A stretch of 64,000 bases of DNA from a virus (IMGVR_UViG_3300035698_016797:64001-128000); one strand, 5' to 3'. Counted from the first letter of the stretch, positions 10,429 to 56,316 are shown. The notes: generated by a model not told the origin, from the letters alone. A program made the numbers and translations.

Positions 10429-10983
10429 CTACGCAGAGACAGAGGTGGCTTCCCATATAGAAAAAATACGCAAAGCTTCTGGTTTGGTTGGTTGCGGAAG
10501 CAGAAAAGTTTCAAACCCGTAGTTTCCAAACGTATCCTTGTATACCCCTGAGAGTTGTTGCTCTAATATTGGGACGTCAGTTCTGTGTCCACGTATACCT
10601 TCTGGGGCTTCCATGATAACGAACTTACGAGCAACCCTCGTTAGTTGAGGAATGGTAGAATCAAAATCTGACTCTGGGATATGCTCTGGTCCATCTTCCC
10701 ATATGATTACGTCATATGATTTTTGACCACACAACTCCTCTATGTTCCTAACGTCACCCTCTACAACATCTATCTCCAAATGTCTAAGGTCTTGTGCATT
10801 CTTAGGATCAAGCTCCAGCACCGTAGGTTTCCACCTTGCCATTGCAAACAAGTCTAGGAATTCAGTCCACTTAGAAGGAACTGCTCCGATATATAACAGT
10901 GTATCAGAATCAAAAACTTCAGGATAATCTTCTTGTAGTTTATCTAAACATGTCATTACTTTGTATTCCTTATCATGAGCCAA
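10429..10983 (-). CDS. Class I SAM-dependent methyltransferase
   Basis: LLYIGA (motif I), VLELD, VVEGDV, YDVIIW..GPEH. Confidence 0.75.
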   Translation of the reverse strand: MAHDKEYKVMTCLDKLQEDYPEVFDSDTLLYIGAVPSKWTEFLDLFAMARWKPTVLELDPKNAQDLRHLEIDVVEGDVRNIEELCGQKSYDVIIWEDGPEHIPESDFDSTIPQLTRVARKFVIMEAPEGIRGHRTDVPILEQQLSGVYKDTFGNYGFETFLLPQPTKPEALRIFSIWEATSVSA

Positions 10984-11531
10984 CCATTTTCACAAGTCTC
11001 TTCTGGTCTTGTCTTGTTGTTAAAAAATACGTATGGTTTGTTAAGACGATGAGCCTCCTCAATATATCTTTTTGGAGAGTCATAATATCCAAGGTCGTGT
11101 ACAAAAATCAAACCATCAGGTTTAGTTATCCTAAAGATCTCATCTGTCCACTCTCCAGAATGGTGGTGGTCTGCGTCTGAAACGACGACGTCGTACGCAT
11201 TCTCTATTGCAGCATAAACGAATTCTTTCTCGGTAACAGGAGCAATAACTCTTGCTCCAAGAAGGGAGACCTCGTCAATAATCTTAGACATTGCAGGATT
11301 ATTATCATGAAAGTTATCAACAGTAGTAAGAGTTCCACTCACGTTATACTTTAGTGCATACAAAATACACTTTGTAAGATACCCATTCCCAATGCCTAAC
11401 TCTAAAACACTCTCTGGTTTTGCAGACAGGATGGTTCCAAAAAGGAAGACACTGTGACACAGGTCAACAGAAACTTCGTTGTCAGAATCAAATGTCGTTA
11501 TGTATTTCATGTACTCAGTTATATTATTCAT
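10956..11531 (-). CDS. Class I SAM-dependent methyltransferase (Methyltransf_24-like)
   Basis: KPESVLELGIGNG, TTVDN, YDVVVSDADH, KPDGLIFVHD. Confidence 0.85.
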   Translation of the reverse strand: MNNITEYMKYITTFDSDNEVSVDLCHSVFLFGTILSAKPESVLELGIGNGYLTKCILYALKYNVSGTLTTVDNFHDNNPAMSKIIDEVSLLGARVIAPVTEKEFVYAAIENAYDVVVSDADHHHSGEWTDEIFRITKPDGLIFVHDLGYYDSPKRYIEEAHRLNKPYVFFNNKTRPEETCENGWLMIRNTK

Positions 11532-12228
11532 GTAACCTCTCCAAATGTTTAGCGTCAGAAATTATCTGTGCTACTCTATTTCTATGTCCACTATTAAACA
11601 GTCCCGCTCCGGCGTAGTGGATTATGTAAGAATCAAACCTGTCTGCACAACCATTCCACTCTTCTGAAAACATGGTCATGTGATTCCATTTAAAGTCTAA
11701 TTCGTGTACGGTAAAACCCTTACTGTGTATTTGATACCCAAAATGAATATCGTCGTAACCAAAATCCATCCAGTAAGTCCCATCAATTGGCGTAAATATA
11801 TCACGATGACACTTGGATGTCAAGAAAACACCGCTGTTTATATACCCTTGTTTCCATCCAACGTCAGTATATCTGCGCTGAACCTTGTGAATTACATCTC
11901 TACGATGAGAAGCTCTTGATCCAACATCCTCAAAGATGGAACCTATAGTATCTTCTGGAACCTCTTTGAAAATATCTGGACATGCAGGACTGACCAATAG
12001 ATCACAATCTAGTGATAGAATTCTATCATAGTCATCATACAGTTTGTACAGGTCCATTATTCTGTAGTGTGCCCGTGGAGGTCTCTCATTAGTCCACACA
12101 GGAGGAGGGCTATCAAGACAACACAAGTCTGCACCACACTTGTAAGCATAAGCCTTCAGGGTAGGCATGGTGACGGAAGACATCTCTTCTATATTAGAAT
12201 CACAACGAGTGGCTATTAAAAGTTTCAC
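11524..12228 (-). CDS. GT-A fold glycosyltransferase (GT8-like)
   Basis: YDRILSLDCD (DxD), YINSGVF, WNHM, IIHYAG; GTG start overlapping the upstream stop. Confidence 0.8.
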   Translation of the reverse strand: MKLLIATRCDSNIEEMSSVTMPTLKAYAYKCGADLCCLDSPPPVWTNERPPRAHYRIMDLYKLYDDYDRILSLDCDLLVSPACPDIFKEVPEDTIGSIFEDVGSRASHRRDVIHKVQRRYTDVGWKQGYINSGVFLTSKCHRDIFTPIDGTYWMDFGYDDIHFGYQIHSKGFTVHELDFKWNHMTMFSEEWNGCADRFDSYIIHYAGAGLFNSGHRNRVAQIISDAKHLERLHE

Positions 12229-13460
12229 TTTGTTTGCCTTTCACAAAGCAACTCGTCAAACTTGTCAGTCAATCGTTTCTGAGTTGCCTTCAATTGTTCG
12301 TTAGTAAAATGCTCTGTACTCCAAAAGTCATTTGAATACTCGTCGGTGTTTGCCCAGTCAGTGTCAGAAAGACTACTATTATATAACTTACATCCTGGAT
12401 AGGGACATAAGATTGTAAATCCAACAACGTCTGGATCAATTCGTTCAACAAAGGCTTCTGTCATGTCTACATCTTCCTGTGTCTCATTTGGCATACCAAG
12501 AAGAAAGAAGGCTCTACGTTTAACACCCTCCTCTTTTGCCCATTCAAATACCTGGGCTATCTTGTCTGTGGACACACCCTTTCCTATATCTTTCAATATC
12601 TTATCGCTACCACTTTCACATCCTATGTTTACCTGATTACAATTAGCCTTTCTTAGCCATTCAAACATTTCTTTGGTTGCAAAATTAGCATGAATCATAG
12701 CCTCCCACTCAGTATCTATGCCCATATTAATCTTGTATTTACAAAGGTCTATTACATACTGTGCGGAAGAATCAAATGTTGCATCGACAAACTTGAAGTA
12801 TGTTAAATCATACTTTTCAATAGCGATTCTGATTTCATTACACAAATCGTGGATTCCGACCCTTCTAATGGGATTTGATTTAGAGTTGTATCTACCAGAC
12901 ATCTTGCACTCTGAACAAAATGCACACTGTATTGGACACCCTCTATTAGCCTGAAAGCTTGCGGTGCGTTGACCATTCATTGACTCACACAAAGAAATAG
13001 TTCTATCATTTTGAATTAAATCTCTATCTGGAGCATACAGGTCTTCCATAGGAAGCTTGCTTCCATACATTACCTTGCTGCGATTTCCATATAATATATG
13101 CAGAAACGCATCCTCTCCCTCTCCTATTACAATCTGGTCAACCCCATCCTGTAAACACTTCTTTCCCATGGCAGTTGTGTGCCAACCTCCAAATACGCAG
13201 TGAACCTTAGGATTGATAGCCTTTATCCTTAGAGACATTGCAACTGCGCGATCAAACGTAGGAGAAGTTGTACTGAACCCTACTATGTCAGACTTTGCCG
13301 CTTCTTGCACTATATAGTCTGCATCATCGAACGTCTCTTGAAAGAAGTTCATTGTAAAAGGCTTGCTATAGTAACTCATCTTGCAATATGAGGCTATGTA
13401 TCCTATGCCGAGAGCTTCCCAAACATTATGATAATATGGTTGTATAAATGTTACTTTCAT
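12225..13460 (-). CDS. Cobalamin-binding radical SAM protein
   Basis: N-terminal B12-binding domain (LGIGYIAS, DIVGFS, VFGGWHTT, IGEGE); RGCPIQCAFC (CxxxCxxC); IGCESGS; FLLGMPNET. Confidence 0.9.
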   Translation of the reverse strand: MKVTFIQPYYHNVWEALGIGYIASYCKMSYYSKPFTMNFFQETFDDADYIVQEAAKSDIVGFSTTSPTFDRAVAMSLRIKAINPKVHCVFGGWHTTAMGKKCLQDGVDQIVIGEGEDAFLHILYGNRSKVMYGSKLPMEDLYAPDRDLIQNDRTISLCESMNGQRTASFQANRGCPIQCAFCSECKMSGRYNSKSNPIRRVGIHDLCNEIRIAIEKYDLTYFKFVDATFDSSAQYVIDLCKYKINMGIDTEWEAMIHANFATKEMFEWLRKANCNQVNIGCESGSDKILKDIGKGVSTDKIAQVFEWAKEEGVKRRAFFLLGMPNETQEDVDMTEAFVERIDPDVVGFTILCPYPGCKLYNSSLSDTDWANTDEYSNDFWSTEHFTNEQLKATQKRLTDKFDELLCERQTK

Positions 13461-14479
13461 CTGACGTATCCAGACCTTTCCATGTACCCCTTGCCAGGAG
13501 TATCTTTGACGGAGTGTGCAGCTCTGTTTATTAACTCAATCACCTTGTCTTGATCTTCAACAATATTCTTCCTTATTGGCAATGCTACGATTCTTGAGAA
13601 AACATAGTCTGTATTTGGAAGACCCCATACAATTGGATCATAGTATACTTTAACCTCTACTCCATTAGATTCAAGGGTATTTACGATAGAATCTCTTACA
13701 GCTGGAGACTTAAGCATGATAGCAAACACGCTGTTGTTTCTTGCAATAGGAGCATGTTGTATCTTAAACGGGAATGTGAATCCATTCATATACTTGTCCA
13801 CTACCTGTTGAGTTTCCTCTCTGTACCTGTCGTAGTTTTTCATTGATTTGAGTGCAACCAGTGCATTAATCTCTCCCATCCTGCCAGACAGCCTTCTCAA
13901 CTCAACGGCAGTTTCTGCTATAGAATCATGGTTTGTTAATATCATTCCACCTTCCATTGCCGTTACCAATTTAGTAAATGAGAATGAAACAACCTCTGCC
14001 AACCCTCTGTGTCCAAGATTTGGGAGATCAAAACCATGTGCGGCATCGTAGATGACTGGTACATCAGTAATCTCATGACATTCACTGCCAAATGTATCTA
14101 CAGCTATAGCCGCGTCTATTCCTCTTGTTTTAATATCGTCAACAATAGGCTCCATCAGCCAGGTGTCCTTATTTATATCACAAAAAACAGGAACGTTATC
14201 CTGGGTGGATTCAATAGCATATATTGTGCTAGGCCATGTAAACGAGGGTACAGCTATTCTCTTTCCCTTCCATCCAGCAGAGTTGATTGCAATAGTTAGT
14301 CCGGTAGTTGCACTTGAACATGCGATAGCATGTTTGACACCATACATAAGACAAAACGTTGATTCCAACTCTTCCATCCTCTCCCCTATGCTAACCCATC
14401 CACTCTCTATGATGGCACGAATCTTGTCATAATCTTCGTCTACTAAGTCAATGTGAGGGACGCTGTATTGATGTTCCAT
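13457..14479 (-). CDS. DegT/DnrJ/EryC1/StrS PLP-dependent NDP-sugar aminotransferase
   Basis: ACSSATTGL, VPSFTW, PVFCDI, YDAAHG, SFSFTK (PLP lysine)...EGGMILT. Confidence 0.9.
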   Translation of the reverse strand: MEHQYSVPHIDLVDEDYDKIRAIIESGWVSIGERMEELESTFCLMYGVKHAIACSSATTGLTIAINSAGWKGKRIAVPSFTWPSTIYAIESTQDNVPVFCDINKDTWLMEPIVDDIKTRGIDAAIAVDTFGSECHEITDVPVIYDAAHGFDLPNLGHRGLAEVVSFSFTKLVTAMEGGMILTNHDSIAETAVELRRLSGRMGEINALVALKSMKNYDRYREETQQVVDKYMNGFTFPFKIQHAPIARNNSVFAIMLKSPAVRDSIVNTLESNGVEVKVYYDPIVWGLPNTDYVFSRIVALPIRKNIVEDQDKVIELINRAAHSVKDTPGKGYMERSGYVR

Positions 14480-14481
14480 AT

Positions 14482-15771
14482 CTATTTCTCCAATTTTATG
14501 AGCGGCCTGCCAGTATCAGACTTGCCTATAATTTCCCAGCTGCTAAACCTTCCAACGTCTGCAATAAATTCTGCCAGTCCATCAAACCCAACAACGTCAA
14601 GCTTTGAAAAAATTGTTGGAGAAGTTTCTACAAAAAACATCTTATTAACCTTACTCCCCAACACTCTCAACGTTTCTTCTACTTCATCTTTACTTCTGGT
14701 GTCTGAAATTTGAACAGAACCTGGAGGAGGAGAGCTAACGAGCCAGTGTAACATACTCAGGGCAGAAACTACATCATAAGACTCCATTGATTTAACATAT
14801 TCCATATTAAAATTTGAAGCATCAAAACTAACAGGCACTTCATGAATTTCTGCCAATGTGTTTGCAAAATTGATCATAGGGACAGATGCATCCATTCCTG
14901 TGGTGTCCATTCCCCACTCCCTATTAAAGTAGAATGGAAACCATCCAACATTACATCCAATGTCAAGATAGGTTGCACCGTTCAAATCAAACTTCATGTG
15001 TTGAAGCATGAGATTTGCTCTGTCTGAACATTTTCTACTAGTTGAAACAAGTTTACCAAAGTCTGGATCATTTTTCTCAGTCTCTGTTCTTAATGTATTT
15101 TGTAGTGGATCAAAAAAGATGGGCTGATGTACGTTCTCTAGGGATTGATACTCTTCGGTTATCATTTTTGCTATTGATTCATCCATTATTTTTCTCCAGT
15201 TATAACCTCTTTGATTGCAGATTTCCATCATTGTGTGTGAAAATCCAGTGTACCATTTGAGATCGTGCTCTGTAAAACTTTTACAATTGAAAAATCCATT
15301 GTTTACAACGGCCATCTTTTCTCCAATAAACGGAAGCCATCCATCAACTCTGTCATCGTTGAAGTCTATTATCTTTGGGTGTCCATTCGTATCTATCATG
15401 CAATGTTTTGACAATGCTGGCCAAAGAACACCGTTCACATACAACTCTCTAACTGTACAGAGATATGTGTAAACTACATGTTTCAATTGATCAAGGGATA
15501 TTTTTTCTGGCAATGGATCGAGCTTTTCAATTACCAAAAACGGATGGCCCTGGATATCTGAACCGTAAGCAATCAAACCTACGACACCGTCAAGTTGAAG
15601 CTCTAAAACCTCCTTCTCTTGGGGAAAGCGCAATCCTTCATTCATTACTTGAACCTTAACAAGGACGTCTTCTCCATCGAGAACTGCCTCAAACATTCTA
15701 CTTGAACCTGAACCCTGTCGTATAAACGGGCGAAGATTAACCAAGTCTGAATATTTTACTTCGTAACTCAT
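14482..15771 (-). CDS. Kinase-fold (probable pseudokinase) / class I methyltransferase fusion
   Basis: N-terminal GSGSS, VLVK, LVIEKL, KIIDF kinase motifs; C-terminal YLDIGCNVGWF, GMD, YDVVSALSMLHW methyltransferase motifs. Confidence 0.75.
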   Translation of the reverse strand: MSYEVKYSDLVNLRPFIRQGSGSSRMFEAVLDGEDVLVKVQVMNEGLRFPQEKEVLELQLDGVVGLIAYGSDIQGHPFLVIEKLDPLPEKISLDQLKHVVYTYLCTVRELYVNGVLWPALSKHCMIDTNGHPKIIDFNDDRVDGWLPFIGEKMAVVNNGFFNCKSFTEHDLKWYTGFSHTMMEICNQRGYNWRKIMDESIAKMITEEYQSLENVHQPIFFDPLQNTLRTETEKNDPDFGKLVSTSRKCSDRANLMLQHMKFDLNGATYLDIGCNVGWFPFYFNREWGMDTTGMDASVPMINFANTLAEIHEVPVSFDASNFNMEYVKSMESYDVVSALSMLHWLVSSPPPGSVQISDTRSKDEVEETLRVLGSKVNKMFFVETSPTIFSKLDVVGFDGLAEFIADVGRFSSWEIIGKSDTGRPLIKLEK

Positions 15772-15773
15772 TC

Positions 15774-16667
15774 TTACGCTCCAAGCATTGTTGTCTCAAC
15801 AATAACCTTTGCCCAATTCTGCCTGTTAAACTTCTGAACAGTATCATACCCATGTGCCCTGATGATGTTTCTTTCTCTCTCATTACACAGGTAATAATCA
15901 ACCTTAGAAGACAACTCTTTAGGACTATCAAACACTTCAAAGTCTTTCCCAGGGGTAAAATCTCTCTCCATATTTGCCCACGGTTGAGTCAACAGAAAAC
16001 CCTTGCTTGCCAAAATTTTGTAAGTTCTATCTGACGTACCAGCATTGTGAAGTACAAAGTTAAGATTGATTATGCTTTTTGCAACTGCAATGGAATGGTC
16101 AATCCCATAGGCGTTATCAATCACACGGAACGGAACCTGTGCAAGATAGGATCTTCTTTGAGAGTCCCTTACGTTTCCAATGAAAGAAACGTCGTGCTCA
16201 TAACCCACATTTGAAAGCCAAAGGTTCGAATCTTCATCATACCCTTCTTGCAAAAAAGACACCTTGCTCGAAATGTGTTGTGCTCTCTGGTATGGTTCTT
16301 CCAATGCAAAGAAGGAGTGGTCTGCAAGAGCAATCTTGGTGATAAGACCACTGTCATAGTTATCCATTGGGTCCATGTACCACAATACAACCTTGGAAAA
16401 CTCTTTACACTTCTCAAAGGTTGCTGAATTTATATGTGCAACATGACTCTTGTCATGATGAGTGCACTTGCTGAACAGAACAATGTCTGGTTTGTACAAT
16501 CTACACTGTTCAATAAGATCCAAGTCTCTTGTATTATTCCCAAACTTAGCTCCTACTGCTCGATAGTCGTACTCAATAACATCATGGCCAAGCCTTCTAA
16601 ATGCAGAAACTTGAGAAACATTTGTGGATTGAGAAGAAAATACTCCAACGAACATTATGTTAGCCAT
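15774..16667 (-). CDS. CgeB-like GT-B glycosyltransferase
   Basis: DVSFIGN, SIINLNF, SDRTYKILASKGFLLT, ELSSKVDYYL...ERNIIRAHGY. Confidence 0.85.
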   Translation of the reverse strand: MANIMFVGVFSSQSTNVSQVSAFRRLGHDVIEYDYRAVGAKFGNNTRDLDLIEQCRLYKPDIVLFSKCTHHDKSHVAHINSATFEKCKEFSKVVLWYMDPMDNYDSGLITKIALADHSFFALEEPYQRAQHISSKVSFLQEGYDEDSNLWLSNVGYEHDVSFIGNVRDSQRRSYLAQVPFRVIDNAYGIDHSIAVAKSIINLNFVLHNAGTSDRTYKILASKGFLLTQPWANMERDFTPGKDFEVFDSPKELSSKVDYYLCNERERNIIRAHGYDTVQKFNRQNWAKVIVETTMLGA

Positions 16668-17571
16668 ATCCAGCCCTTTCTAGGAATTCATTTAGACCTA
16701 TCCATTCAACAGTACAATCAAAAACATAAAGCGGATCAATTACTCTACAATCCCATTGACACACCTCTCTATTGTACAGCCAAAACTTGGATGGTTTAGT
16801 ATGTTGACATGGGCTACAATCTAACTCTTTATAGACTACATTACAACTCTTATGGAACCTTTTGTCATAATTCTTTTTTCTATCAGTGAACGTAAACAAA
16901 ACAACTTGATGAATTCCAAGCAGACTTGCCAAATGGTAAGTGCCAGTGTCTGTAGACACAAACATCTTGCAACCCTTTAAGAGTGCTATTGTATTGGTTA
17001 ATGACATTTCGGTAAGGTCTATTGTACCTTTAACATATTCATCTTTAGAACCTATGCTTGCTACTGACAGGCCAGCCTTGTCAAAACATGAGGCAAGCTC
17101 TTCAAAATATGGATAACTTTTTGCCTCCCACATGTCTCCTGAAGCTTTGTTGTATCCGTTATGAATTACAATTTTAGCATCAGTCCTGGGATCTATATCA
17201 TCAAACAGACCTGGCAATACAAAGTCATCTTCTGAAATCTCGTCTGTTACTATCTGCATGTTGAATGACACCTCAGAAAAGTCTCCTCTTTTAACATCAC
17301 GATTAAGAAGTGTCAATCCATTGATTTGTTTTTCCGCAGCGTCACAACAGTAAGACCTATAGTACCCATCATATTCAGCCGGGTCAATACTGTGGACAAC
17401 AGTAGCAATGCGCTTAAACAAAAAGTTGGTATAATCATAACGCGTCCTAATTACATTCATGACACACACTTCTTTGTCTGGGTTGAGTTTTTTTAACAGT
17501 GCAACTCCAGGCATTGCCTCTACCTGATTCCCAACCCCTTCTCCAACCAAATATAATAGTTTACGAGCCAT
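16660..17571 (-). CDS. GT9-family (heptosyltransferase-like) glycosyltransferase
   Basis: GVGNQV, KSYPYFEELA, FVSTDTGTYHLASLLG..VVLF. Confidence 0.85.
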   Translation of the reverse strand: MARKLLYLVGEGVGNQVEAMPGVALLKKLNPDKEVCVMNVIRTRYDYTNFLFKRIATVVHSIDPAEYDGYYRSYCCDAAEKQINGLTLLNRDVKRGDFSEVSFNMQIVTDEISEDDFVLPGLFDDIDPRTDAKIVIHNGYNKASGDMWEAKSYPYFEELASCFDKAGLSVASIGSKDEYVKGTIDLTEMSLTNTIALLKGCKMFVSTDTGTYHLASLLGIHQVVLFTFTDRKKNYDKRFHKSCNVVYKELDCSPCQHTKPSKFWLYNREVCQWDCRVIDPLYVFDCTVEWIGLNEFLERAGYG

Positions 17572-18496
17572 TGCGTAAATCCTTATCGTCTAACGACCCT
17601 TGAATTTGATCCTTGATTTTGTCTAGGTCTGGATCATTAAACTTTTCACGAACTTCGTCCTCTGGAAAGTCTGTAAGTACCATCTTATCAAACTGTGCAT
17701 TTTTAAACGTTGCGGGTGTTGAATGCAGCCCACGTTCACCTATATAGATTGCCCTGTTAACAGTGGTAAACAAGCGCGTCATACCAGCCATTACACAAGC
17801 CCACTCTTTGGCTCTATCCTGAGAGGTTGTACCCTCTGGAAGATTCCAAGTATCCTTGTACCATTTACGAATGGCATTGTGATCTCTTTTTTGATAGTTG
17901 AACTGTTGGATCATCTCATAATATTCCTGATAGACGTCCCAAATTCTTTCCCACTTATCCTTCCACATTGCAAAACCATACCAATGAGGTCTGCCAATAC
18001 GAACACTATCTAGTGCTCCAATCTTGTCATCCTCTTCAATAAACCATCCTCCCGCAACGCTTGATTGAACAGTTGCTATTTGTGGATGATCCTTAAATTG
18101 TCTCAACAAAATTTTGGTAAGGTAAATCCAATTCTTTGACACTACAACATCGTCTTCTACAACCGCACACGCATCATAACCTCCGTGCAAAAGAATATCA
18201 TTATGAGCCTTACATTGGTTCATAGCTATCCCATAATTCCCATCACGAATCATATCATTTTTGTTTGGGAGAGTACATTCTCTCCACAAGTTAATACAAA
18301 GATCTATGGACTCTTGATTTCCAGAAACGGAACCATCAACAACGTTCTTAGAACCATCTTGTACAAAGAAAAAATCGACATCTTCAAGGTCTGTCTGTCC
18401 CTCAAGAGATTTTAACACCTGCCTTAGATATTTTGGCCTGTCGAATGATATGATTGCAACAGCAAGTCTTGTGTTAAGAATGTTCATACTACACAC
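17561..18496 (-). CDS. GT-A fold (GT2-like) glycosyltransferase
   Basis: IISFDRPKYLRQVLKSL, FVQDG, NYGIA, VVEDDVVVS. Confidence 0.8.
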   Translation of the reverse strand: MCSMNILNTRLAVAIISFDRPKYLRQVLKSLEGQTDLEDVDFFFVQDGSKNVVDGSVSGNQESIDLCINLWRECTLPNKNDMIRDGNYGIAMNQCKAHNDILLHGGYDACAVVEDDVVVSKNWIYLTKILLRQFKDHPQIATVQSSVAGGWFIEEDDKIGALDSVRIGRPHWYGFAMWKDKWERIWDVYQEYYEMIQQFNYQKRDHNAIRKWYKDTWNLPEGTTSQDRAKEWACVMAGMTRLFTTVNRAIYIGERGLHSTPATFKNAQFDKMVLTDFPEDEVREKFNDPDLDKIKDQIQGSLDDKDLRNGS

Positions 18497-19649
18497 CTCT
18501 TACTTCCTTTATTACGTCTGCCATTTTCCGACAGGCGTGTGTCCACGTCCACTTGTTACACATATCCTGTCTGGCATTCCTGCCAATACGACAACCGTTC
18601 TGAGGATCGCTATACAACCCTCTCATTGTAGCGACAAGATGATCCTCATCAACCTCTGCCCATTTGTGTCCAACATAAGCCTTGTTGTGAGGCATGTCTT
18701 CATGGTTGATTCCTTTTAATTCATAATCAATAAGAAGACTGTTTTCGTCAGTCATGTACTCTGTATTACCGCTCCAGTTTACACCTATGGTTGGCAGTCC
18801 AGAAGACATAGCTTCAGAATGCGTAAGAGACCATCCTTCTCCACGGCTTGGAAGCACATAAGCGTCCAGTGCGGTATAGAACGATGACATATCTTCTTCT
18901 TTTAGCATGTCTGTGAACAAAATTATTGGAGGAAGGTCTGCGCCTTGTCCAAACGAAGCTTTGATTTCTGCAATTTCATTCTTAACCTTGCTCACGCTCT
19001 CATTGATTGGATGCTGATAATATACTTTGAGAACTAGAACTACATCCTTCTTTCCTTGAAACGCACTATAGTATGCCTTAATAAGGGCACGAGGATTCTT
19101 ACGTTCTGTCCATTCAAAATTAGAACCAAACGCATACCTTCCTGCAATTGCCTCAACAGCCTCTTCAAGGGGCAAAACATCTGGATTGTATCTGTCAACA
19201 TCCACTCCGTGAGGAACAACATAGATTGGCCTATCAATACCAGACTCTTGGAAGGTTCTCTTGTTAAACTGAGAATACGTTACAACTGCATTCATTGCCC
19301 TCATTGGAAGAACCCACAAAATAGGCAAACGATCAGTCTCAAACGTTGTAACACCAATAAAGTTGTCCACATTGCGCTGAATCATATAGTTTTCTGGAGT
19401 AAGATTGTACGCAACAGTAATATCTTTTTGGTCAATAGGAATGGGGTTGTGCGCCATACCTTCAAGCCTTGAAATAACTCTACGCAAATCGAGCTTTTCT
19501 CCATGCCAAAAACTCTTGTTCATCAGCTTAATGTTGAACTCATTTAGATCGTCAAGTCCAAGGACGTAGTTTCTGGTGGCCTCTCCATACCCGCTTGGGT
19601 CTGTTGCCGCACCCATCCAAATTAGAAATGGTTTCTTTTCTTCTGACAT
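18489..19649 (-). CDS. GT4-family glycosyltransferase
   Basis: SGYGEA, TTFETD, VPHGVD, ERKNP, VLPSRGEGWSLTHSEAMSSGLP. Start at 19649 is TAATG-coupled with a GGAGG SD. Confidence 0.9.
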   Translation of the reverse strand: MSEEKKPFLIWMGAATDPSGYGEATRNYVLGLDDLNEFNIKLMNKSFWHGEKLDLRRVISRLEGMAHNPIPIDQKDITVAYNLTPENYMIQRNVDNFIGVTTFETDRLPILWVLPMRAMNAVVTYSQFNKRTFQESGIDRPIYVVPHGVDVDRYNPDVLPLEEAVEAIAGRYAFGSNFEWTERKNPRALIKAYYSAFQGKKDVVLVLKVYYQHPINESVSKVKNEIAEIKASFGQGADLPPIILFTDMLKEEDMSSFYTALDAYVLPSRGEGWSLTHSEAMSSGLPTIGVNWSGNTEYMTDENSLLIDYELKGINHEDMPHNKAYVGHKWAEVDEDHLVATMRGLYSDPQNGCRIGRNARQDMCNKWTWTHACRKMADVIKEVRGV

Positions 19650-21073
19650 TAGAGTTCCTCCGTTCCATAAGAACTTGGACCAGATACATCCTCGGATATT
19701 CCTGTTTTGGGAGTGTAGTCCAGTGTTAGATTGATTAGATCCTGCCATTCTGAGTTAACTCTCTCCCAAGAATAACCCTTTGCTCTCGCCCTTGAGAGGC
19801 CAGACAGGACTTCACGATACTCATCTCCTACAATCACAGACTCTTTTGGCCAACCATAGTTTTCATTGATATATTTTCCCCACTTGGTCCAAAATACATC
19901 GCTGTCGTTATAATATAACCTGTCAAGACGCATACAGTAGTCAAAAAGATCAACAACCGCACGCTCAATATTGGTTAATGGTTCAGTCATAAACTCAGAA
20001 ACCTTAATCAGCTCTCCAGCACCCTTTACAAAATCTACATGTGCAGAATAGTCCGTGACAACTACCGGAGTTCCACAAGCCATAGCTTCTAGGATTGGAA
20101 GACCCCATCCTTCTCCAGAGGTTGGCAGTGTAAACACGTCAAACGACGCCATAATCTCTGCCAGTCTATGAATTTCAACACCATGCCCAACCTGTAATCC
20201 TCTTGGGTATGCAATCTTACCTGATAATCCGAAACGTTGAATCAATTCATAAATATTCCATCCACAATCGTTGAGTGCCATGTGCATGTAAAAACGAACA
20301 TCTTCTTTTGGTTCTCCATTAACTACATTTACACTCTCACATGCTTGACATTGTTTTGAAATCTCAAACCTAAGCTCTCCACAGTCAGAGCATACTGTAT
20401 ACCCATTAAGGAATAGACGTGCCGTCTTAAACAACCTTGGAAGATACTTCCTTGGCTGATTACGAGCTACACACCCTACAATGAACTTGTTTTCACCTCC
20501 AAATTGCTTCTTCATTTCCTTTCTTGCATCTTCCTCTATGGGTTTGAAGATATCCAGGTCAACTGCATGATTAATGGTTGTTAAGTTTGTTAATCCTGGG
20601 TTTCGTTGTGTAACAACTTTCTTGCCAAAATCACCATACAAAACCGTTACGTCTGCTTTTGCAAAAGTATCAGTCCACTTCTTAGGAATTGGCATTCCAT
20701 CAATAGGAACATACAAGATGAGCTTATACTTGAATTCATTCCTAGCTGGACCAATAGCTGTGTGCTCTACCATCCAAGAATCTCCAACACAAAGAACCAA
20801 GTCAGGCTTGTATTTCTCTACCACCTTGGGGAAGGTGTGAGCTGCATATTTGTCCATCTCCATCCTCATTCTGTCAGTCTGGTCGGTGGTAAAGATTTCG
20901 TACGGAACAATCTCCTCCGTCTCCTTGTGAAACCATCCTATTGTCTTGACTTCATACTCTCCAGTGTTGTACAAATGAAGAGCTACATTCTTGATAATTC
21001 TGGCAAACCCAGTGTGAATACAGCTACTATCTCCAACGAGTAATATTCTTGGTTTTCTTTTCCATTGTTTCAT
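19649..21073 (-). CDS. GT4-family glycosyltransferase with internal CxxC...CxxC insertion
   Basis: HTGFAR, INHAVD, VARNQPRK, TLPTSGEGWGLPILEAMACGTPVV; insert CSDC...CQAC. Confidence 0.9.
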   Translation of the reverse strand: MKQWKRKPRILLVGDSSCIHTGFARIIKNVALHLYNTGEYEVKTIGWFHKETEEIVPYEIFTTDQTDRMRMEMDKYAAHTFPKVVEKYKPDLVLCVGDSWMVEHTAIGPARNEFKYKLILYVPIDGMPIPKKWTDTFAKADVTVLYGDFGKKVVTQRNPGLTNLTTINHAVDLDIFKPIEEDARKEMKKQFGGENKFIVGCVARNQPRKYLPRLFKTARLFLNGYTVCSDCGELRFEISKQCQACESVNVVNGEPKEDVRFYMHMALNDCGWNIYELIQRFGLSGKIAYPRGLQVGHGVEIHRLAEIMASFDVFTLPTSGEGWGLPILEAMACGTPVVVTDYSAHVDFVKGAGELIKVSEFMTEPLTNIERAVVDLFDYCMRLDRLYYNDSDVFWTKWGKYINENYGWPKESVIVGDEYREVLSGLSRARAKGYSWERVNSEWQDLINLTLDYTPKTGISEDVSGPSSYGTEEL

Positions 21074-21083
21074 TGTATGTTTC

Positions 21084-22193
21084 CTACTTTATTGTTAGAT
21101 ATGGAGTGCCTTCTTCTCTAATAGCACTGCTTTCCAGAATGTCTAATGCGTGTTTGTCACCTTTAAATGCATTTCTTACAGCACCACTGCTAACATTAAT
21201 CAGGTGTTCTGAAACACCTCTCTCGTCAGCAAGCTTCTGTACAAGGTTTGCATCATACTTAATAGATTTTTTTGAAGATAAATGAGCGGTCTTTCCTCCA
21301 GCCTTAATGGATTTGATACCACGATCCTTTAGAATTCCTGCAACCCAATCATCAATTCTCTTTTTCTCTCTCTTTAGAGACGTTAAAGCATATGAGATTT
21401 TTAACGAAGCTTCTATGATTGCCTCAAGAGATACGGACCCGTCTTCATTTTCAAATGAGTAAAATTCTTCTCCATTTTGAACCCTCTGAAACTCTGGACA
21501 CTCTTTGCGAAACGGACAGTTCCAACAAAAAGTATTCAGTGTTGCACTAGGAGTGTCGTTACGCAAAATCTGTTCAACTAAAAACTCAAGGTAAACCCTA
21601 TACTCCTGGACCCTGTTGTATGGAACTTCAATACTCTTCCTCAATCCAGTACGTATGTAATAATAAGAGAATACAATTCTCTCTATCTCTGGAAACTTGC
21701 CAGACTCATACACCCACAACGGATACATATTGGTCTGATGACTGGCACGCATCTCTCCAATTGTAGGAACAAATCTTCCGCTCTTATAGTCGATGACCTC
21801 CATTGTGGTTGCATCTTTGAGTCTTAACATGTCTATCTTTCCCAAAATGGTTATACCAGAATCAAACGTGTGCTCCATTTCAACCTCTGTGTCTATAACA
21901 AGAGCATCATCTCTTGGAAATGAAGAAATAGTATCAACAACCATCCTCATTGCCTCTTCAAATTCATCAAAGTCTGCACAATTTTCCTCTCTTTTTGCCA
22001 TGTCAAAAGACTCTTCTACATCAAAATCAAACGGAGGGCGATAGTAAAGCTCAAGCACTTTGTGTGCAAAATTTCCTGCATCCATAGCTACACTTCCAGG
22101 CTGTCTAATTCCGTCTTCGTATTTTACTTTGTACCTCAAGGCACACTGTTCGTATAGAGAAGCCCTTGATGGGCTAATTTTTTCACATTTCAT
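21084..22193 (-). CDS. PD-(D/E)XK nuclease (AddB/Cas4-like, probable Fe-S staple)
   Basis: SPSRASLYEQC, GNFAHKVLE, GKIDML...VIDYKSG, QTNMY, CWNCPFRKEC. Confidence 0.9.
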   Translation of the reverse strand: MKCEKISPSRASLYEQCALRYKVKYEDGIRQPGSVAMDAGNFAHKVLELYYRPPFDFDVEESFDMAKREENCADFDEFEEAMRMVVDTISSFPRDDALVIDTEVEMEHTFDSGITILGKIDMLRLKDATTMEVIDYKSGRFVPTIGEMRASHQTNMYPLWVYESGKFPEIERIVFSYYYIRTGLRKSIEVPYNRVQEYRVYLEFLVEQILRNDTPSATLNTFCWNCPFRKECPEFQRVQNGEEFYSFENEDGSVSLEAIIEASLKISYALTSLKREKKRIDDWVAGILKDRGIKSIKAGGKTAHLSSKKSIKYDANLVQKLADERGVSEHLINVSSGAVRNAFKGDKHALDILESSAIREEGTPYLTIK

Positions 22194-22195
22194 AG

Positions 22196-22852
22196 TTAAT
22201 GCCTTTTATAAAATTTAAGCATAGCATCTTCAAGTAGGGAAGCATATCCCTCATCAGCTAAGCTTTGTAAACCCTTGTCTGTGATTCCAGCTTTTTTTCT
22301 GATACTCTTTGGGATCAGAGCTTCTCTCTGTGGATTTGAAAGTGAAGATGCACTCTTCTCTCCGTTTACAATCGCAATAATAGTTTGCATTGTCTCGGTC
22401 AAGATATATGAATCCGCTTCATTGTCATCCTTAAAAGCTATTCCACACTGTTGATATACCATACTGAGGTACAACTTCTTATCCTTCTTATTTACGGCAC
22501 CATTGCCAAAAAAGAACTTCTTATGATTTGCAGGAGGGATAACATACAACGGCAAAGATCTTCGATGAAAAAGCAGGTCAAGACAGCCAACCAGTTCACC
22601 ATTTTCGCACATCGAAGAACTTCTTCCTTTTGAGTTGTATGAATACCCCTCCCTAACTCCTACAATACCTTTCATGTCTTCAGCGGTTAAGCAGCTGTCA
22701 AACAGTTGTTCAAAAGCTTTGACAATCCAATCAACCCTACCTATACCTCGCATCTTTTTCGTTTCGAGGACAAGAACCTCGTAAGAAAATTCACCCTTGC
22801 GAATGCAGACACCAGTTGCTGTCAATGATTGATCTATGCCAACTATAATCAT
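22196..22852 (-). CDS. RuvC-like Holliday junction resolvase
   Basis: MIIVGIDQSLTATG, VREGYSY, PPANHKKFFFGNG, DDNEADS. Confidence 0.85.
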   Translation of the reverse strand: MIIVGIDQSLTATGVCIRKGEFSYEVLVLETKKMRGIGRVDWIVKAFEQLFDSCLTAEDMKGIVGVREGYSYNSKGRSSSMCENGELVGCLDLLFHRRSLPLYVIPPANHKKFFFGNGAVNKKDKKLYLSMVYQQCGIAFKDDNEADSYILTETMQTIIAIVNGEKSASSLSNPQREALIPKSIRKKAGITDKGLQSLADEGYASLLEDAMLKFYKRH

Positions 22853-23535
22853 TATGCATTAGCTCCTACTTGACTAACGGAGCCATCTTCCTCTACCTTT
22901 GTTACTCCACTTCCGTACATATCTATCACTCCAGTGTCTCCAGTAGTCACCATTGTTTCATAGTATGTAGAGATGCCACGCGAAGAAACATCTTTCATTG
23001 ACTTTGTACCTTTGCGTGTAGCTGTAAAGCTAAGCATGTTTCCAACAGCAATCCCAAGATTTTTTTGAACCTTTGTTAGATCCTGGTTTGCACCAACATA
23101 TGCAAAGGTCCAACGGCCAGTAGCCTGTTTTGCCTTGATAAGTTCAGATAGTTGTTCACTATTGAACCTTTTAGAAGCATTTTCCATTCCATCACTGACT
23201 ATCACAACCAGCACTGACACTCCTTCGTCATTGATGTCAGGAATATTTGCTGACATTCTTGTGATAGTTTCTCCAACCGCATCGTACATGGCGGTGGTTG
23301 TATCTGGAATATATGTTCCCTTATCAAGAGGCTTAACGGTCTTTGGATCAACATTAAAATGCACAACGTTAACCTTCTCACTAAACATTGTCATAACAAG
23401 CCTAGTATCAAGATTCAACGATGCAACCTTGGCCTTTTGCAAGTGCTCATTGAAGCCACTAAGTGCCTCTTCGAGAATACTCGCCATTGAACCACTACTA
23501 TCAAGAACTAATGCTGTATAATTTTTCTTAGCCAT
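22852..23535 (-). CDS. von Willebrand factor A domain protein
   Basis: LVLDSSGSM (MIDAS DxSxS), TAMYDAVG, IVSDGMEN, WTFAYVGAN. Confidence 0.9.
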   Translation of the reverse strand: MAKKNYTALVLDSSGSMASILEEALSGFNEHLQKAKVASLNLDTRLVMTMFSEKVNVVHFNVDPKTVKPLDKGTYIPDTTTAMYDAVGETITRMSANIPDINDEGVSVLVVIVSDGMENASKRFNSEQLSELIKAKQATGRWTFAYVGANQDLTKVQKNLGIAVGNMLSFTATRKGTKSMKDVSSRGISTYYETMVTTGDTGVIDMYGSGVTKVEEDGSVSQVGANA

Positions 23536-23546
23536 TACTCATCTCC

Positions 23547-24005
23547 TTAAAACGGGATGTCATCTGCAAGGTCATCTTCATCGCTCTCTGGAGCAGGCTT
23601 AGCGGGTGCCTTTGCCTCTTCTTTTTCTGGAGGAACATCCATATTAGGATCTGCCTCTCCAAGAATCTTGTAGTCTATTACAAAGAACTCGTGTTCATAC
23701 CTACGATTGCCATCCTTGTCTTCCCACGAACGCGTACGATAAGACGACACTATTCCGATAGGAACATTCGGAGTAAGCTCTTCGGCCATCCTTTCTGCAA
23801 TTTCTCCCCATGCAATTATAGGGACATAAGTACTTCTAAACTTCTTCTCTCCAGAAGTCTGTTCGAGCCAGCTCTCTGTAATCTTTAAATTAACCTTGGT
23901 TAAAATGTTACCACTATCAAAAGTCTTCGTTTCAACTCCCGTTTCATACCTTTTGCTAGGACAAACGGTGCCTTCAAATCTACAAATGTTCTTTTCATCA
24001 GCCAT
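23547..24005 (-). CDS. ssb: Single-stranded DNA-binding protein
   Basis: OB fold with IIAWGEIAE, YRTRSWEDKDGNRRY, and acidic tail ending DDIPF. Confidence 0.92.
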   Translation of the reverse strand: MADEKNICRFEGTVCPSKRYETGVETKTFDSGNILTKVNLKITESWLEQTSGEKKFRSTYVPIIAWGEIAERMAEELTPNVPIGIVSSYRTRSWEDKDGNRRYEHEFFVIDYKILGEADPNMDVPPEKEEAKAPAKPAPESDEDDLADDIPF

Positions 24006-24046
24006 TTTTTAGTCTCCTTATGTATTCCAGGCTTTGTATCTATACT

Positions 24047-26702: not shown

Positions 26703-26713
26703 GTGTTGTTACC

Positions 26714-27409
26714 TTATTTGTTATCGTTTGTATGCTTTGGTGCCAAACTTCCATACTGTACTTCATGTTGACGCATTTGCAAAGTCTTTTTAAGACTGTT
26801 ATCTAATTGTTCTAACACGCTAGCCATCCCATCACACTTAGCACGAAATACCTGAAATGCGTTATGTCGCATCTCTCTTTCTCTCAACTTGGGATATGTA
26901 GCCACAGCCTCAGCTTCTCTTTCTCCAACTGTTTTACCACTACATCTAGTAGAATACAGCTTTAACATTCTCTTAAACTCCACCTTTGACATATCACACA
27001 TCACTCCCCAGTGATTCTCCTTTCCCTTTACAAATACGATATGAGCAGCCAAACACATTTCGTATTCGTGTAGTTTAATCAGTGGGCAATCAAATAGATA
27101 TGCTTGATTCCACCTCATATAATGAATAATTTCTTCGAGAGCATTTCCCTCTTCATAGGAGTCTGGACTTTCCAGAGCAGCTGTTCCAAGTTTCTTAGTT
27201 GCAACATTTGCCAACCTCTTTACTCTGAGCCTGTGTTCCTCTCCGGCAACAGCATGTCTCAAAAGTTCCTCGATCTCTATCTCTTCATGTGCCTCCACAT
27301 CAGATTCTGGAGTCTCAGCTTCGATGTTTTTGATTTTTTCTACCATTTTAGATAGCCTCCATAATTCGCTTGTAAACCAATTTTTCTGTAATCTCTTCGT
27401 TGTAGGCAA
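26714..27409 (-). CDS. Helical hypothetical protein (weak UvsY-like resemblance)
   Basis: Predicted all-alpha with KTVGEREAEAV; lies between RecA and DnaB. Confidence 0.5.
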   Translation of the reverse strand: MPTTKRLQKNWFTSELWRLSKMVEKIKNIEAETPESDVEAHEEIEIEELLRHAVAGEEHRLRVKRLANVATKKLGTAALESPDSYEEGNALEEIIHYMRWNQAYLFDCPLIKLHEYEMCLAAHIVFVKGKENHWGVMCDMSKVEFKRMLKLYSTRCSGKTVGEREAEAVATYPKLREREMRHNAFQVFRAKCDGMASVLEQLDNSLKKTLQMRQHEVQYGSLAPKHTNDNK

Positions 27410-28877: not shown

Positions 28878-28878
28878 G

Positions 28879-39958: not shown

Positions 39959-39969
39959 TTTGGTTCCTC

Positions 39970-42753: not shown

Positions 42754-42771
42754 AGCCTTATCTCCTTATCC

Positions 42772-43878: not shown

Positions 43879-43889
43879 AACCTTTCTCC

Positions 43890-51532: not shown

Positions 51533-51543
51533 GGGTATTCTCC

Positions 51544-54645: not shown

Positions 54646-54657
54646 AACCTTTTCCTC

Positions 54658-55557
54658 TTAATATTGGGCAGTAAACGATACTGCCGTTCCTTTTCCGTTT
54701 CTTCCGGGAGACACACCTACGCTCGATCCATCAATGAACAGGTCTAAAAATAATTCATCCCCAGAATCTAAACTATCTACAACTTTTATATCAACCTTTC
54801 CGTCCGTAAATCCATTGGATATATCCACCAATGCTGCGTTGCCCAAGCTCCCAGAGGGAGGAGATACACAACCCGCTCCTGGCCCAGCCGTTCCCTGTAC
54901 GGCGAAACTTCTTCTGTTCCACCCTGAAAAGTAAAGCTCAGAACCATTTGCAAACGTATATGTTTGTTCTGCTATCCTTGGTATCTCTGCTGTGATTGTA
55001 ACAACTCCTCCATCAAGAATGTAGTCATTTGCATTGCTGCTGATTTTAACCTTTTTAGATGGTACTTCTGCTTCTATTAAAGTTGCACTATACTTAATAA
55101 GATTAGGCCAAAGAGTCTCTTCTATTGTAAGAGATTGAGGTCTCGCATAAACTCTTCCGCCGCCATTATTCAATAAACCACTTGGAAGAGGAACACACCT
55201 GTTGTCCTCAAGGGTTCCCCAACTTGACATTGCAGTGGGAGCTACACCTTCTGATGCTGTTGAAAGGGCACTATATAGGGCTTCATATGCAGATTTTAAA
55301 GAGTTGTATTTAGATTCATCTGTTCCAGTTCCTCCTGATGGAAGAATCTCAGCGTTGATTGTAAACGTTCCATTGATAGTATAGACAGCCTTAGATCTTC
55401 CAACATTGGCTTCGTTATAAACAAACCCAACCTGCATACTTGCAAGATAATATCCCCACAATGGATCATAAACCTCGCTTCTCACATCTGGAGTAACAGG
55501 AGGCGTTGGGTTTATGTCCAGAGATCGTATGTGTCCATAATGTATTGGTAAAGACAT
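54658..55557 (-). CDS. Putative distal tail / tail-tip protein
   Basis: 299 aa, beta-rich; second gene after the tape measure. Confidence 0.5.
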   Translation of the reverse strand: MSLPIHYGHIRSLDINPTPPVTPDVRSEVYDPLWGYYLASMQVGFVYNEANVGRSKAVYTINGTFTINAEILPSGGTGTDESKYNSLKSAYEALYSALSTASEGVAPTAMSSWGTLEDNRCVPLPSGLLNNGGGRVYARPQSLTIEETLWPNLIKYSATLIEAEVPSKKVKISSNANDYILDGGVVTITAEIPRIAEQTYTFANGSELYFSGWNRRSFAVQGTAGPGAGCVSPPSGSLGNAALVDISNGFTDGKVDIKVVDSLDSGDELFLDLFIDGSSVGVSPGRNGKGTAVSFTAQY

Positions 55558-55566
55558 GTTTTATCC

Positions 55567-56316
55567 TTATAGTATCTGTGGAGGTGCAATCATTTCCGCT
55601 GTCATGTGTGCAATTTTATTTTCAACATCCCATCTCACAGAACCTTTGGTTATCATACACTCGTGAATATCAGTTTCTGTAGGCTCCAAGGCTTCTGGTA
55701 TTGCCTCTGAAAGGTCAAACGTTAAAGGATACCCAGAAGGAGATGTGGCGCTATCAGAAGAAAGTCTTTGTTCCAACGTTGAAACCAATCCACTAGGATA
55801 AGCATCATTACTATTGACCACATAGTCTCCTGTAACAGTAACCTTAAGCATGTCGTGTCCCAGTTGTTGCCTTTGCCATCCGTCTACGGAGAATGCCGCG
55901 TCTTGTGCCCTTCTGATTTTAGATGGAGTTATAGAAATCTTTGGGTTCCACAGGGTGTATCCCCACCATCCTATTGATGCAGCTGTACTTCCCGAGTTGT
56001 CGTTGTCAAATTCGAGAGTTACTTTTCCCCAATCTCTCCACACACCTCCGTCATAAGAGATTCCCTTCAGGATCATATTGTTTAAAACTGCGTGTGGAAG
56101 AGTTAGGGTTCCGACTCCAACGTTTGATCCCTTCATCGCATCAAGATCTGCGGCGGTCATTTCTGACGTTTGTAGGGTTCCTGTTACAGAAATTGACATA
56201 GTATTTCTGGCGGAGCCAGAGCCTTCCCATGCAAACTTGTGCTGTATGTAATACATGATACGAGACAACGTGCACGTACCACTATCATTTGTAAAGGACA
56301 TGTTGCTAAGTGCCAT
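55567..56316 (-). CDS. Putative distal tail protein
   Basis: 249 aa, immediately downstream of the tape measure; AAGGA SD. Confidence 0.5.
   Translation of the reverse strand: MALSNMSFTNDSGTCTLSRIMYYIQHKFAWEGSGSARNTMSISVTGTLQTSEMTAADLDAMKGSNVGVGTLTLPHAVLNNMILKGISYDGGVWRDWGKVTLEFDNDNSGSTAASIGWWGYTLWNPKISITPSKIRRAQDAAFSVDGWQRQQLGHDMLKVTVTGDYVVNSNDAYPSGLVSTLEQRLSSDSATSPSGYPLTFDLSEAIPEALEPTETDIHECMITKGSVRWDVENKIAHMTAEMIAPPQIL

Follow-up and report, generated by a model that had tools for sequence, protein, structure and literature searches.

Results

A sugar cassette and tag-rich tail proteins in one phage

The stretch of DNA analysed here (the window) comprises 64,000 nucleotides, bases 64001-128000 of IMGVR_UViG_3300035698_016797, a virus record that is complete at 181,030 bp and has terminal repeats. 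We call this uncultured phage G0 and give coordinates within the window unless they are marked as genome coordinates. Nearly all genes from 3.5 kb on lie on the minus strand. Two features of the window are our subject: a cassette of glycan-building genes that sits inside the replication module, and a series of presumed tail proteins in which the tripeptide [Ala/Pro]-Ser-Gly ([AP]SG, or the tag) is greatly over-represented. A first-pass annotation, made from the DNA of the window, had proposed an 11-gene soluble cassette, and closer analysis bears this out: 11 open reading frames (ORFs) lie head to tail on the minus strand (10429-21073; Table 1), and none of their products contains a transmembrane-like segment (highest Kyte-Doolittle 19-residue mean 1.30, threshold 1.6). 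By Pfam the cassette encodes five to six glycosyltransferases (GTs), a sugar aminotransferase, a B12 radical-SAM (S-adenosylmethionine) enzyme and two to three methyltransferases; it has no dehydratase. Neither Pfam nor hydrophobicity revealed a flippase, polymerase, lipid-carrier transferase or other membrane protein among the 11, parts that one would look for in a Wzx/Wzy- or ABC-dependent locus for surface polysaccharide or seroconversion.

The tag excess is found in the eight tail-module proteins encoded at 32968-56316. Together they carry 61 [AP]SG tripeptides, compared to 7.1 +/- 2.6 in 5,000 within-protein shuffles (maximum 17), an about nine-fold excess in what we take to be outer tail and fibre proteins. 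When all tripeptides were scanned without bias, PSG (z 17) and ASG (z 12) ranked first and second; PTG, ATG, PDG, PNG and GSG were not enriched. The excess is restricted to virion proteins. In the rest of the G0 proteome, PSG occurs 10 times (7.7 expected) and ASG 15 times (14.2 expected), and a giant 5,506-residue ORF in the position of the tape measure, which serves as an internal negative control, has four [AP]SG (6.2 expected). The major head protein has a single one. Enrichment of [AP]SG in presumed external tail proteins, and its absence from the tape-measure-position ORF and the remaining proteome, had been noticed in the first-pass annotation and is confirmed by these counts. Its picture of a tagged "tail operon" stands as far as the enrichment goes and needs adjustment in two respects: the excess extends beyond the span, to three Laminin-G/Ig-type (immunoglobulin-type) late proteins upstream of the terminase gene, and the word "tail" is owed to gene order and weak fold matches.

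Selection acts on the peptide, at many independent places, as indicated by the use of both serine codon families in the motif (43 TCN and 41 AGY in 13 structural proteins) together with the absence of internal repeats from the tail proteins. The first observation excludes a DNA word as the origin of the tag, and the second excludes its multiplication by domain duplication. The codon TCA is rare within the tag (3 of 84, compared to 20% of serine codons in the same proteins), and AGT and AGC are over-used there.

The tags also share a structural position. In an AlphaFold2 model of the 368-residue protein (residues 40-215, predicted local distance difference test (pLDDT) score ~90), all nine tags fall in loops of two to six residues just before or between strands. 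In the N-terminal 330 residues of the 927-residue protein, modelled with similar confidence (pLDDT ~90), five of six tags are at strand ends or hairpin turns and one is inside a strand. Thus, 14 of 15 tags in the confident parts of the two models are in turns or at strand ends. Foldseek found nothing at E <= 0.001 for the 368-residue model; VIA-align gave a best Z of 6.5, below the level of a safe fold match, with rows made up mostly of Ig-like domains of phage neck, baseplate and tailspike proteins.

Searches of PHROGs and Pfam gave nothing informative for the tail-module proteins and no family match for the 5,506-residue ORF. Because family matches are absent, the "tail" label rests on gene order and weak fold matches. 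The order of terminase, head genes, giant ORF and large proteins is the usual layout of a long-tailed phage and places the giant ORF at the tape-measure position; homologues of 3,991-6,192 residues are present in all relatives. From this order and the weak matches to phage neck, baseplate and tailspike folds, we infer that the tagged proteins belong to the tail.

Table 1. Features of the window and of the flanking G0 genome (window coordinates unless marked; aa, amino acids)
Feature	Position	Strand	Remarks
Split PolIII-alpha polymerase	6144-8516 and 8699-10375	minus	
PolIII-alpha N-terminal (PHP) half, one island border	8699-10375	minus	phrog_405; PHP domain in L033 and L066 homologues
Cassette genes 1-8, lineage-specific island fill	10429-17571	minus	Pfam and NCBIfam
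Gene 1 (map order), 184 aa			no identity beyond a faint methyltransferase match
Gene 2			Methyltransf_24
Gene 3			weak GT8-like protein
Gene 4			B12-binding radical-SAM enzyme
Gene 5			DegT/DnrJ/EryC1 aminotransferase, E 2e-42
Gene 6, 429 aa			methyltransferase domain
Gene 7			Glyco_trans_1_2
Gene 8, GT9, 303 aa			PF01075 40.4 bits, cut-off 22
Gene 9, GT2-like, 311 aa	17561-18496	minus	weak PF00535 and GNT-I matches
Gene 10, GT4-B, 419 aa, second of the conserved pair	18489-19748	minus	Pfam Glyco_trans_1_4
Gene 11, GT4-A, 474-aa GT-B, first of the conserved pair	19649-21073	minus	Pfam Glycos_transf_1, Glyco_trans_1_4
PD-(D/E)XK nuclease, other fixed island border	21084-22193	minus	PF12705 86 bits
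PD-(D/E)XK nuclease, SSB, primase, DnaB, RecA	21084-28821		
Metallophosphoesterase, 453 aa	30631-31992	plus	N-terminal helix-turn-helix
S8 subtilase, end of tail operon	32274-33071		
Row of very large proteins	32968-56316		no family matches
Tail-module protein, 438 aa	32968-34284	minus	[AP]SG 3, expected 0.27
Tail-module protein, 1,751 aa	34703-39958	minus	[AP]SG 7, expected 1.2
Tail-module protein, 927 aa	39970-42753	minus	[AP]SG 11, expected 0.74; N-terminal 330 residues Ig-like sandwiches
Tail-module protein, 368 aa	42772-43878	minus	[AP]SG 9, expected 0.44
Tail-module protein, 2,414 aa	43890-51134	minus	[AP]SG 21, expected 2.8
Tail-module protein, 1,033 aa	51544-54645	minus	[AP]SG 5, expected 0.9
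Proteins of 299 and 249 aa directly downstream of the giant ORF	54658-56316	minus	[AP]SG 3 (0.5 expected) and 2 (0.25 expected)
5,506-aa ORF, tape-measure position	56327-64000 (C-terminal 2,557 codons); genome 120327-136847	minus	
Major head protein	genome 143814-144695		
Large terminase subunit, 574 aa	genome 149695-151419		
Three Laminin-G/Ig-type late proteins	genome 151421-164073		[AP]SG 8, 6 and 9
Late radical-SAM (371 aa) and 899-aa proteins	genome 154226-158025 (L025:6226-10025)		

The tag and a conserved pair of GT4 genes

The two cassette genes next to the nuclease encode glycosyltransferases of family GT4, here GT4-A and GT4-B. Both exceed the curated Pfam cut-offs for Glycos_transf_1 (26.4 bits) and Glyco_trans_1_4 (27 bits), GT4-A with 52.3 and 47.9 bits and GT4-B with 40.8 and 43.1. 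Both glutamates of the E-X7-E motif are invariant, E321 and E329 across 36 homologues of GT4-A and E304 and E312 across six of GT4-B. Most of the 36 GT4-A homologues also have a conserved four-cysteine insert (CxxC...CxxCGS) between the Rossmann halves, which may be a zinc ribbon.

We compared G0 with six whole related genomes from IMG/VR and a metagenome-assembled genome (MAG), named G1, G2, G3, G5, G6 and G7, as well as with a fragment (G4), the partial contigs L001/L065/L066, L033 and L034 (Table 2). Gene order is conserved across these relatives. By megablast, a 19.6-kb query had no near-identical DNA among 50,697 phage records. Homologues of the 368-residue protein are 45-60% identical and lie on contigs of up to 178 kb; among IMG/VR records, a single-protein query found no relatives of this protein, an alignment query found two, and an alignment of the major capsid protein added none. 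P0016, a distant homologue on a contig with a different gene order, has no tags.

Table 2. Tag counts, GT4 pair and sugar-island content in G0 and its relatives
Genome	Length	GC content	[AP]SG observed vs expected	GT4 pair	Tripeptide ranking	Further island genes
G0	181,030 bp		61 vs 7.1	present	PSG and ASG first and second	see Table 1
G3	156 kb	62%	67 vs 11.7	present	ASG and PSG top two	radical-SAM enzyme
L001 contig	155,956 bp		15 vs 1.4	present		
G2	194 kb	65%	19 vs 6.4	present	PSG first	GDP-mannose 4,6-dehydratase, RmlD-like reductase
G1	178 kb	30%	10 vs 3.8	present	PSG third	two methyltransferases
G7	185 kb	65%	5 vs 5.3	present	PSG and ASG not enriched	
G5	175 kb	44%	7 vs 4.9	absent	PSG and ASG not enriched	
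G6	183 kb	57%	8 vs 4.4	absent	not enriched; three homologous proteins only	
L033						FnlA/B/C-like enzymes, GT2, methyltransferase
L066						two GT2s, two radical-SAM enzymes, methyltransferase

In every genome compared that has a clear [AP]SG excess, the GT4 pair is present. G3 serves as an independent replicate: it has 62% GC, its tail proteins are ~35% identical to those of G0, and both ASG (z 13.8) and PSG (z 8.8) are strongly enriched. Neither G0 nor G3 is enriched in PDG, PNG, PGG or GSG, so the signal is not a general preference for turns. The tag-rich contig L001 offered a test that the link could have failed, as its GT4 status was found afterwards by walking the contig; it proved to have the pair and a rich island, with two GT2s, two radical-SAM enzymes and a methyltransferase (L066 in Table 2), and the link passed.

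Conversely, the GT-free genomes G5 and G6 show no clear excess. G5 is the more informative of the two, since the genes of G0 that are kept in G1, G2 and G3 but missing from G5 are the two GT4s only. Its complete genome has no GT1- or GT2-family match, and its nuclease gene directly abuts the polymerase gene. At all nine sites where at least three genomes share a tag, G5 has replaced it (DIG, PKG, PKD, DGK, MEQ, TTG, TDQ and PSD). G5 is sister to G1 with support of 1.0 in head-plus-replication trees, in tail trees and also when the distant G6 is included. With a root on the long G6 branch or close to it, these topologies would mean that G5 lost the pair secondarily.

G7, used as a blind test, kept the GT4 pair but lacks PSG altogether. 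Its conserved tag sites carry threonine instead (KTG, PTG, GTG, PTS, PTG, PTS and ATD); [AP]TG occurs 19 times (8.0 expected), and seven of these 19 align with an [AP]SG of G0. G2, the sister of G7 with equal GC content, keeps PSG. Threonine at the conserved sites of a genome that kept the pair indicates that the hydroxyl is retained where the enzymes are retained. G7 excludes the simple rule that a GT4 pair implies a PSG excess, and we have replaced that rule by one that admits serine or threonine.

The first-pass annotation had suggested testing whether tag enrichment co-varies with the glycosyltransferase cassette. The pattern in G5 and G6 agrees with such a link, and the partner of the tag proved to be the GT4 pair and not the 11-gene cassette: nine of the 11 genes lack a homologue in G1, G2, G3, G5 and G7, which excludes the idea that the whole cassette goes with the tag. 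Its further idea, that the transferases act on the serine of [A/P]SG, passed the comparative test and must now accommodate G7, with its pair, its missing PSG and its threonines.

Conservation and turnover of tag sites

Most aligned tag sites belong to one genome alone, 41 to G0 and 48 to G3, and 19 are common to both, with alignment error at 30-35% identity hiding some sharing. In the 2,414-residue protein, 17 of 21 sites are not common to G3, which has 22 sites of its own. Where G0 has a tag, relatives often keep the glycine (PEG, TNG) or show other spellings such as PDN. Tagged serines are nonetheless better conserved than other serines, 0.67 compared to 0.28 in the 368-residue family and 0.56 compared to 0.39 in the 927-residue family. 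The tags thus comprise a conserved core and many lineage-specific gains, most of them having arisen independently in separate lineages at beta-turns that already existed.

The GT4 pair anchors a variable island

GT4-A is present in G1, G2, G3, G7, L033 and L066 and absent from G5 and G6; GT4-B is 40-54% identical in G1, G2, G3, G7, L033, L034 and L066. GT4-A has 160 homologues, many of them on contigs of 145-185 kb, which makes it a core gene of a large clade. In G1, G2, G3 and G7, the pair are the sole cassette genes with homologues, invariably flanked by the nuclease on one side and the polymerase halves on the other. The nuclease adjoins GT4-A in L033, L034, L066 and G1. The GT2-like gene has 45% identical counterparts at the same place in the two nearest relatives, L033 and L066, and no homologue in G1, G2, G3, G5 or G7; the eight genes at 10429-17571 have none in G1, G2, G3, G5, G6 or G7. 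Other lineages fill the same place with other sugar genes (Table 2). The locus is therefore a hypervariable sugar island anchored by the GT4 pair, and glycan loci are usually variable in this way.

The NCBIfam matches for the cassette enzymes are all below the curated cut-offs, and far enough below that no sugar made by the cassette can be named. Family GT9 includes protein heptosyltransferases of the TibC/AAH type as well as enzymes that act on lipopolysaccharide (LPS); the GT9 protein of the cassette weakly matched LPS heptosyltransferases I and II in NCBIfam and matched no solved GT9 structure by sequence.

Other features of the genome and its relatives

Several observations concern neighbouring genes. 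If the 5,506-residue ORF is the tape measure, ~1.5 A per residue gives a tail of roughly 0.8-0.9 um, comparable in length with that of Thermus phage P74-26, whose tail has been described as the longest known (PMC10034513). The PolIII-alpha polymerase is split into two ORFs in all relatives, and in G2 (20.5-33.8 kb) about 9 kb including sugar genes lie between the halves. GT4-A of G3 (38423-40228) has 601 residues and contains a Hint (intein) domain. The large terminase subunit has 1,009 residues in G1 and 1,110 in G3, compared to 574 in G0, lengths that suggest inteins in these proteins as well.

Among the tag-rich Laminin-G/Ig-type late proteins of G0 (918, 842 and 1,163 residues) lie genes for a second radical-SAM protein and for an 899-residue protein with a GT2 domain at residues 451-601 (44 bits); all of these are unique to G0. 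Between the tail and replication modules, the 453-residue metallophosphoesterase has more than 490 relatives at ~50% identity on marine metagenome contigs that contain no other G0 gene. We considered it as a bridge between the tail genes and the sugar island and rejected it, as the 80 loci examined belong to unrelated marine phages that have that gene alone in common.

Whole contigs of the clade, L148 (= G1), L149 (= G6) and L001, appear within public MAGs assigned to Melioribacteraceae, Victivallaceae and 'Candidatus Njordarchaeia'. This assignment is probably a binning artefact, although it may hold a hint of the host; the bacterial-type replication genes argue against an archaeal one.

Discussion

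A sugar coat as the proposed role of the tag

Comparison of sequences across this clade of 175-195-kb phages with a giant tape-measure-type gene suggests that the tag is probably the site where the phage attaches its own sugar coat. We regard it as an even bet that the underlying process is a cytoplasmic, sequon-directed O-glycosylation of virion proteins by the conserved GT4 pair, with a glycan tailored by the lineage-specific island. In such a system, the two soluble GT-B enzymes would form the conserved core of a machinery that modifies the phage's own virion proteins, and the acceptor would be the hydroxyl of serine in [Ala/Pro]-Ser-Gly, or of threonine in one lineage. Within tail-tip, fibre and decoration proteins, the acceptors would occupy tight beta-turns along the edges of sandwich modules of Ig-like or lectin-like type. 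Enzymes of the island would extend and decorate the glycan, in G0 with three to four further transferases, a 4-aminotransferase, the B12 radical-SAM enzyme and two to three SAM methyltransferases. We propose that the host supplies the keto-sugar precursor, since a dehydratase is missing from the cassette. We also propose that coat density evolves as tags come and go, lineage by lineage, at turns that are already present. From gene content, the first-pass annotation's picture of a branched glycan, decorated with amino and methyl groups and borne on dozens of sites, is plausible. The more specific proposal, in which the GT4 pair reads an [Ala/Pro]-[Ser/Thr]-Gly sequon in beta-turns of folded virion proteins, a hypervariable island provides each lineage with its own glycan, lineages tune their coat by gaining and losing sequons, one lineage switched from serine to threonine along with its enzymes and one lost both enzymes and tags, is rather more tentative, and we would put it somewhat short of even. 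What the comparisons show is the tag excess, its confinement to virion proteins, its selection as a peptide, its place in turns, its turnover and its phyletic tie to the GT4 pair; the modification of the serine, the enzyme responsible and the glycan are inferred.

Several observations weigh against this proposal. The support for glycosylation is comparative throughout, and the link between pair and tag comes down to one loss event (G5) and one switch from serine to threonine (G7). The GT-free G6 is only remotely related and shows a mild [AP][ST]G excess (14 compared to 7.7 expected). G1, G2 and G7 have the pair and a 2.4- to 3-fold excess, which means that the pair is insufficient for a high tag load, and tag load does not track island size, G3 being as tag-rich as G0 with few accessory genes beside the pair. 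The GT4 genes lie in the replication module, the place expected for a DNA-modifying enzyme, and they matched no characterised protein glycosyltransferase above noise (GtfA TIGR02918, 23.3 bits with a cut-off of 574.6). The external location of the tagged proteins likewise depends on gene order and weak fold matches.

Alternative explanations

The main alternative, unlikely in our judgement and yet the strongest competitor, is that [A/P]SG is a favoured beta-turn spelling of Ig-like and lectin-like modules, amplified by drift or by selection for folding or solubility, and that the glycosyltransferases are unrelated to it. The position of the tags in the two models, in turns and at strand ends, is what such a spelling predicts, and so are the glycines often conserved at the third position where the tag is absent and the weak excess in G1, G2 and G7. 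In addition, the tail proteins of all relatives, the GT-free G5 among them, contain Ser-Gly at ~1.5 times the expected frequency; ordinary turn composition therefore accounts for part of the signal, which counts against glycosylation as well. However, the classical turn spellings PDG, PNG and PGG are not enriched, and two lineages each acquired more than 40 sites, at places that differ between them. G5 replaced all conserved tags while keeping the fold, and G7 switched to threonine in concert, to the point of having no PSG, when its sister G2 keeps PSG at the same GC content. That many unlinked sites should change together points to a reader that they have in common.

It is less probable again that the GT4 pair and the island glycosylate phage DNA or the nucleotide pool as protection from restriction, the tail tag having another cause. 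The cassette lies between nuclease and DNA polymerase genes, the GT4s weakly match PF20706 ("GT4 in conflict systems"), and known phage glycosyltransferases attach varied glycans to DNA as hypermodifications (Pyle et al. 2024, cited in PMC12619734). A ThyA-like hydroxymethylase (PF00303), which makes the hydroxymethyl-pyrimidine acceptor in DNA glycosylation of the T-even type, is absent, however, from the complete G0 genome, with controls matched in 10 of 14 genomes. PF12851, for TET/JBP dioxygenases, matched neither G0 nor any control genome and so bears neither way. For a DNA base, five to six transferases, a sugar aminotransferase and C- and O-methyltransferases would make an unusually large toolkit, and no gene besides the GT4 pair shares its phyletic pattern. 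Genomes that bear the pair show an extreme purge of restriction-type palindromes (whole-genome observed/expected in G0: CTGCAG 0/46, GAGCTC 0/29, ATCGAT 0/17; GATC 1/408 in G1; G3 is also purged), and so, to much the same extent, does the GT-free G5 (AAGCTT 0/58, CTAG 0/108). That the purge persists alongside the pair is not what one would expect of DNA shielded by bulky sugars, an indirect argument.

Slightly less probable still is a different reader of the tag, such as the S8 protease of the phage, a radical-SAM enzyme or some glycosyl- or phosphotransferase of the host, or else a cassette whose role is to remodel a host surface glycan or a small molecule. An S8 subtilase does end the tail operon, but it is retained in the tag-free G5 and G6; a second radical-SAM gene and a GT2-domain protein do lie among the tagged late proteins of G0, but they are unique to G0 and the tag is clade-wide. 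The resemblance of the GT9 match to LPS heptosyltransferases would fit action on the host, but the cassette has no membrane-linked step, flippase or lipid-carrier transferase, and the tag is common to phages whose hosts differ widely (GC 30-65%). Overall, we found no sign of a cassette acting on DNA or on the host envelope, outcomes that the first-pass annotation had named as contrary to its proposal.

Implications

If virion glycosylation by the GT4 pair is correct, this would be the first sequon described for the glycosylation of phage virions; the tag, three residues long, is readable directly from sequence, and the proposed enzyme core is two genes. The clade supplies natural controls, a lineage without enzymes and tags and a lineage with a serine-to-threonine switch. 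Sugar-coated phages would become predictable from metagenomes, the variable sugar islands within the replication modules of large phages would be explained, and protein engineering and glycoengineering would gain a small cytoplasmic O-glycosylation tag. If it is false, a concerted change from serine to threonine and more than 40 independent gains in each of two lineages still need explaining.

Comparison with known systems

A few mycobacteriophages have been shown to glycosylate their particles with enzymes of their own; Freeman and colleagues (2023, Cell Host Microbe) reportedly found that phage-encoded glycosyltransferases glycosylate mycobacteriophage virions. The proposed system is similar in that a phage would use its own soluble glycosyltransferases, in mycobacteriophages sometimes accompanied by methyltransferases, to decorate structural proteins in the cytoplasm, which in G0 is a prediction. 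A published summary of the mycobacteriophage glycans places them at the C-termini of capsid and tail-tube subunits (PMC12619734), whereas the three-residue tags of G0 are internal and scattered through presumed tail-tip, fibre and decoration proteins. A further difference concerns gene placement: the transferase genes of G0 belong to the replication module and adjoin a hypervariable sugar island. A search of the full-text literature found no defined sequon for phage virion glycosylation.

Of the solved structures, both GT4 profiles come nearest to B736L of chlorovirus NY-2A (PDB 3OY2; E 1e-16 for GT4-A and 4e-10 for GT4-B), a retaining GT-B enzyme that binds GDP-mannose and whose role is unproven (PMC4691112). 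Chloroviruses glycosylate their own major capsid protein, with glycans N-linked to asparagine in no commonly recognised sequence pattern (PMC4691112). Chloroviruses and, as predicted from its genes, G0 would have in common virus-encoded soluble transferases that build an unusual methylated virion glycan without the host secretory machinery; the linkage to asparagine and the eukaryotic host set the chloroviruses apart.

In logic, the proposed system also resembles GtfA/GtfB, the O-GlcNAc transferase pair of Gram-positive serine-rich-repeat adhesins, whose product is extended by GT8 and GT2 enzymes. In both, two adjacent cytoplasmic GT-B proteins would act on serines of a surface protein and soluble enzymes would extend the glycan stepwise. 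The likeness does not go beyond this logic: in sequence, the pairs are similar only over the nucleotide-sugar motif (PDB 4PQG and 5E9T, E ~1e-4 to 5e-3), and the GtfA/GtfB acceptor is a long disordered serine-rich repeat, whereas the tag of G0 is a turn in a folded domain.

Finally, the turnover of tags recalls the glycan shields of enveloped animal viruses, in which N-X-S/T sequons are gained and lost and are read by host machinery. By analogy, the number of a short motif varies between lineages and its positions drift in both, but in G0 the reader would be encoded by the phage itself.

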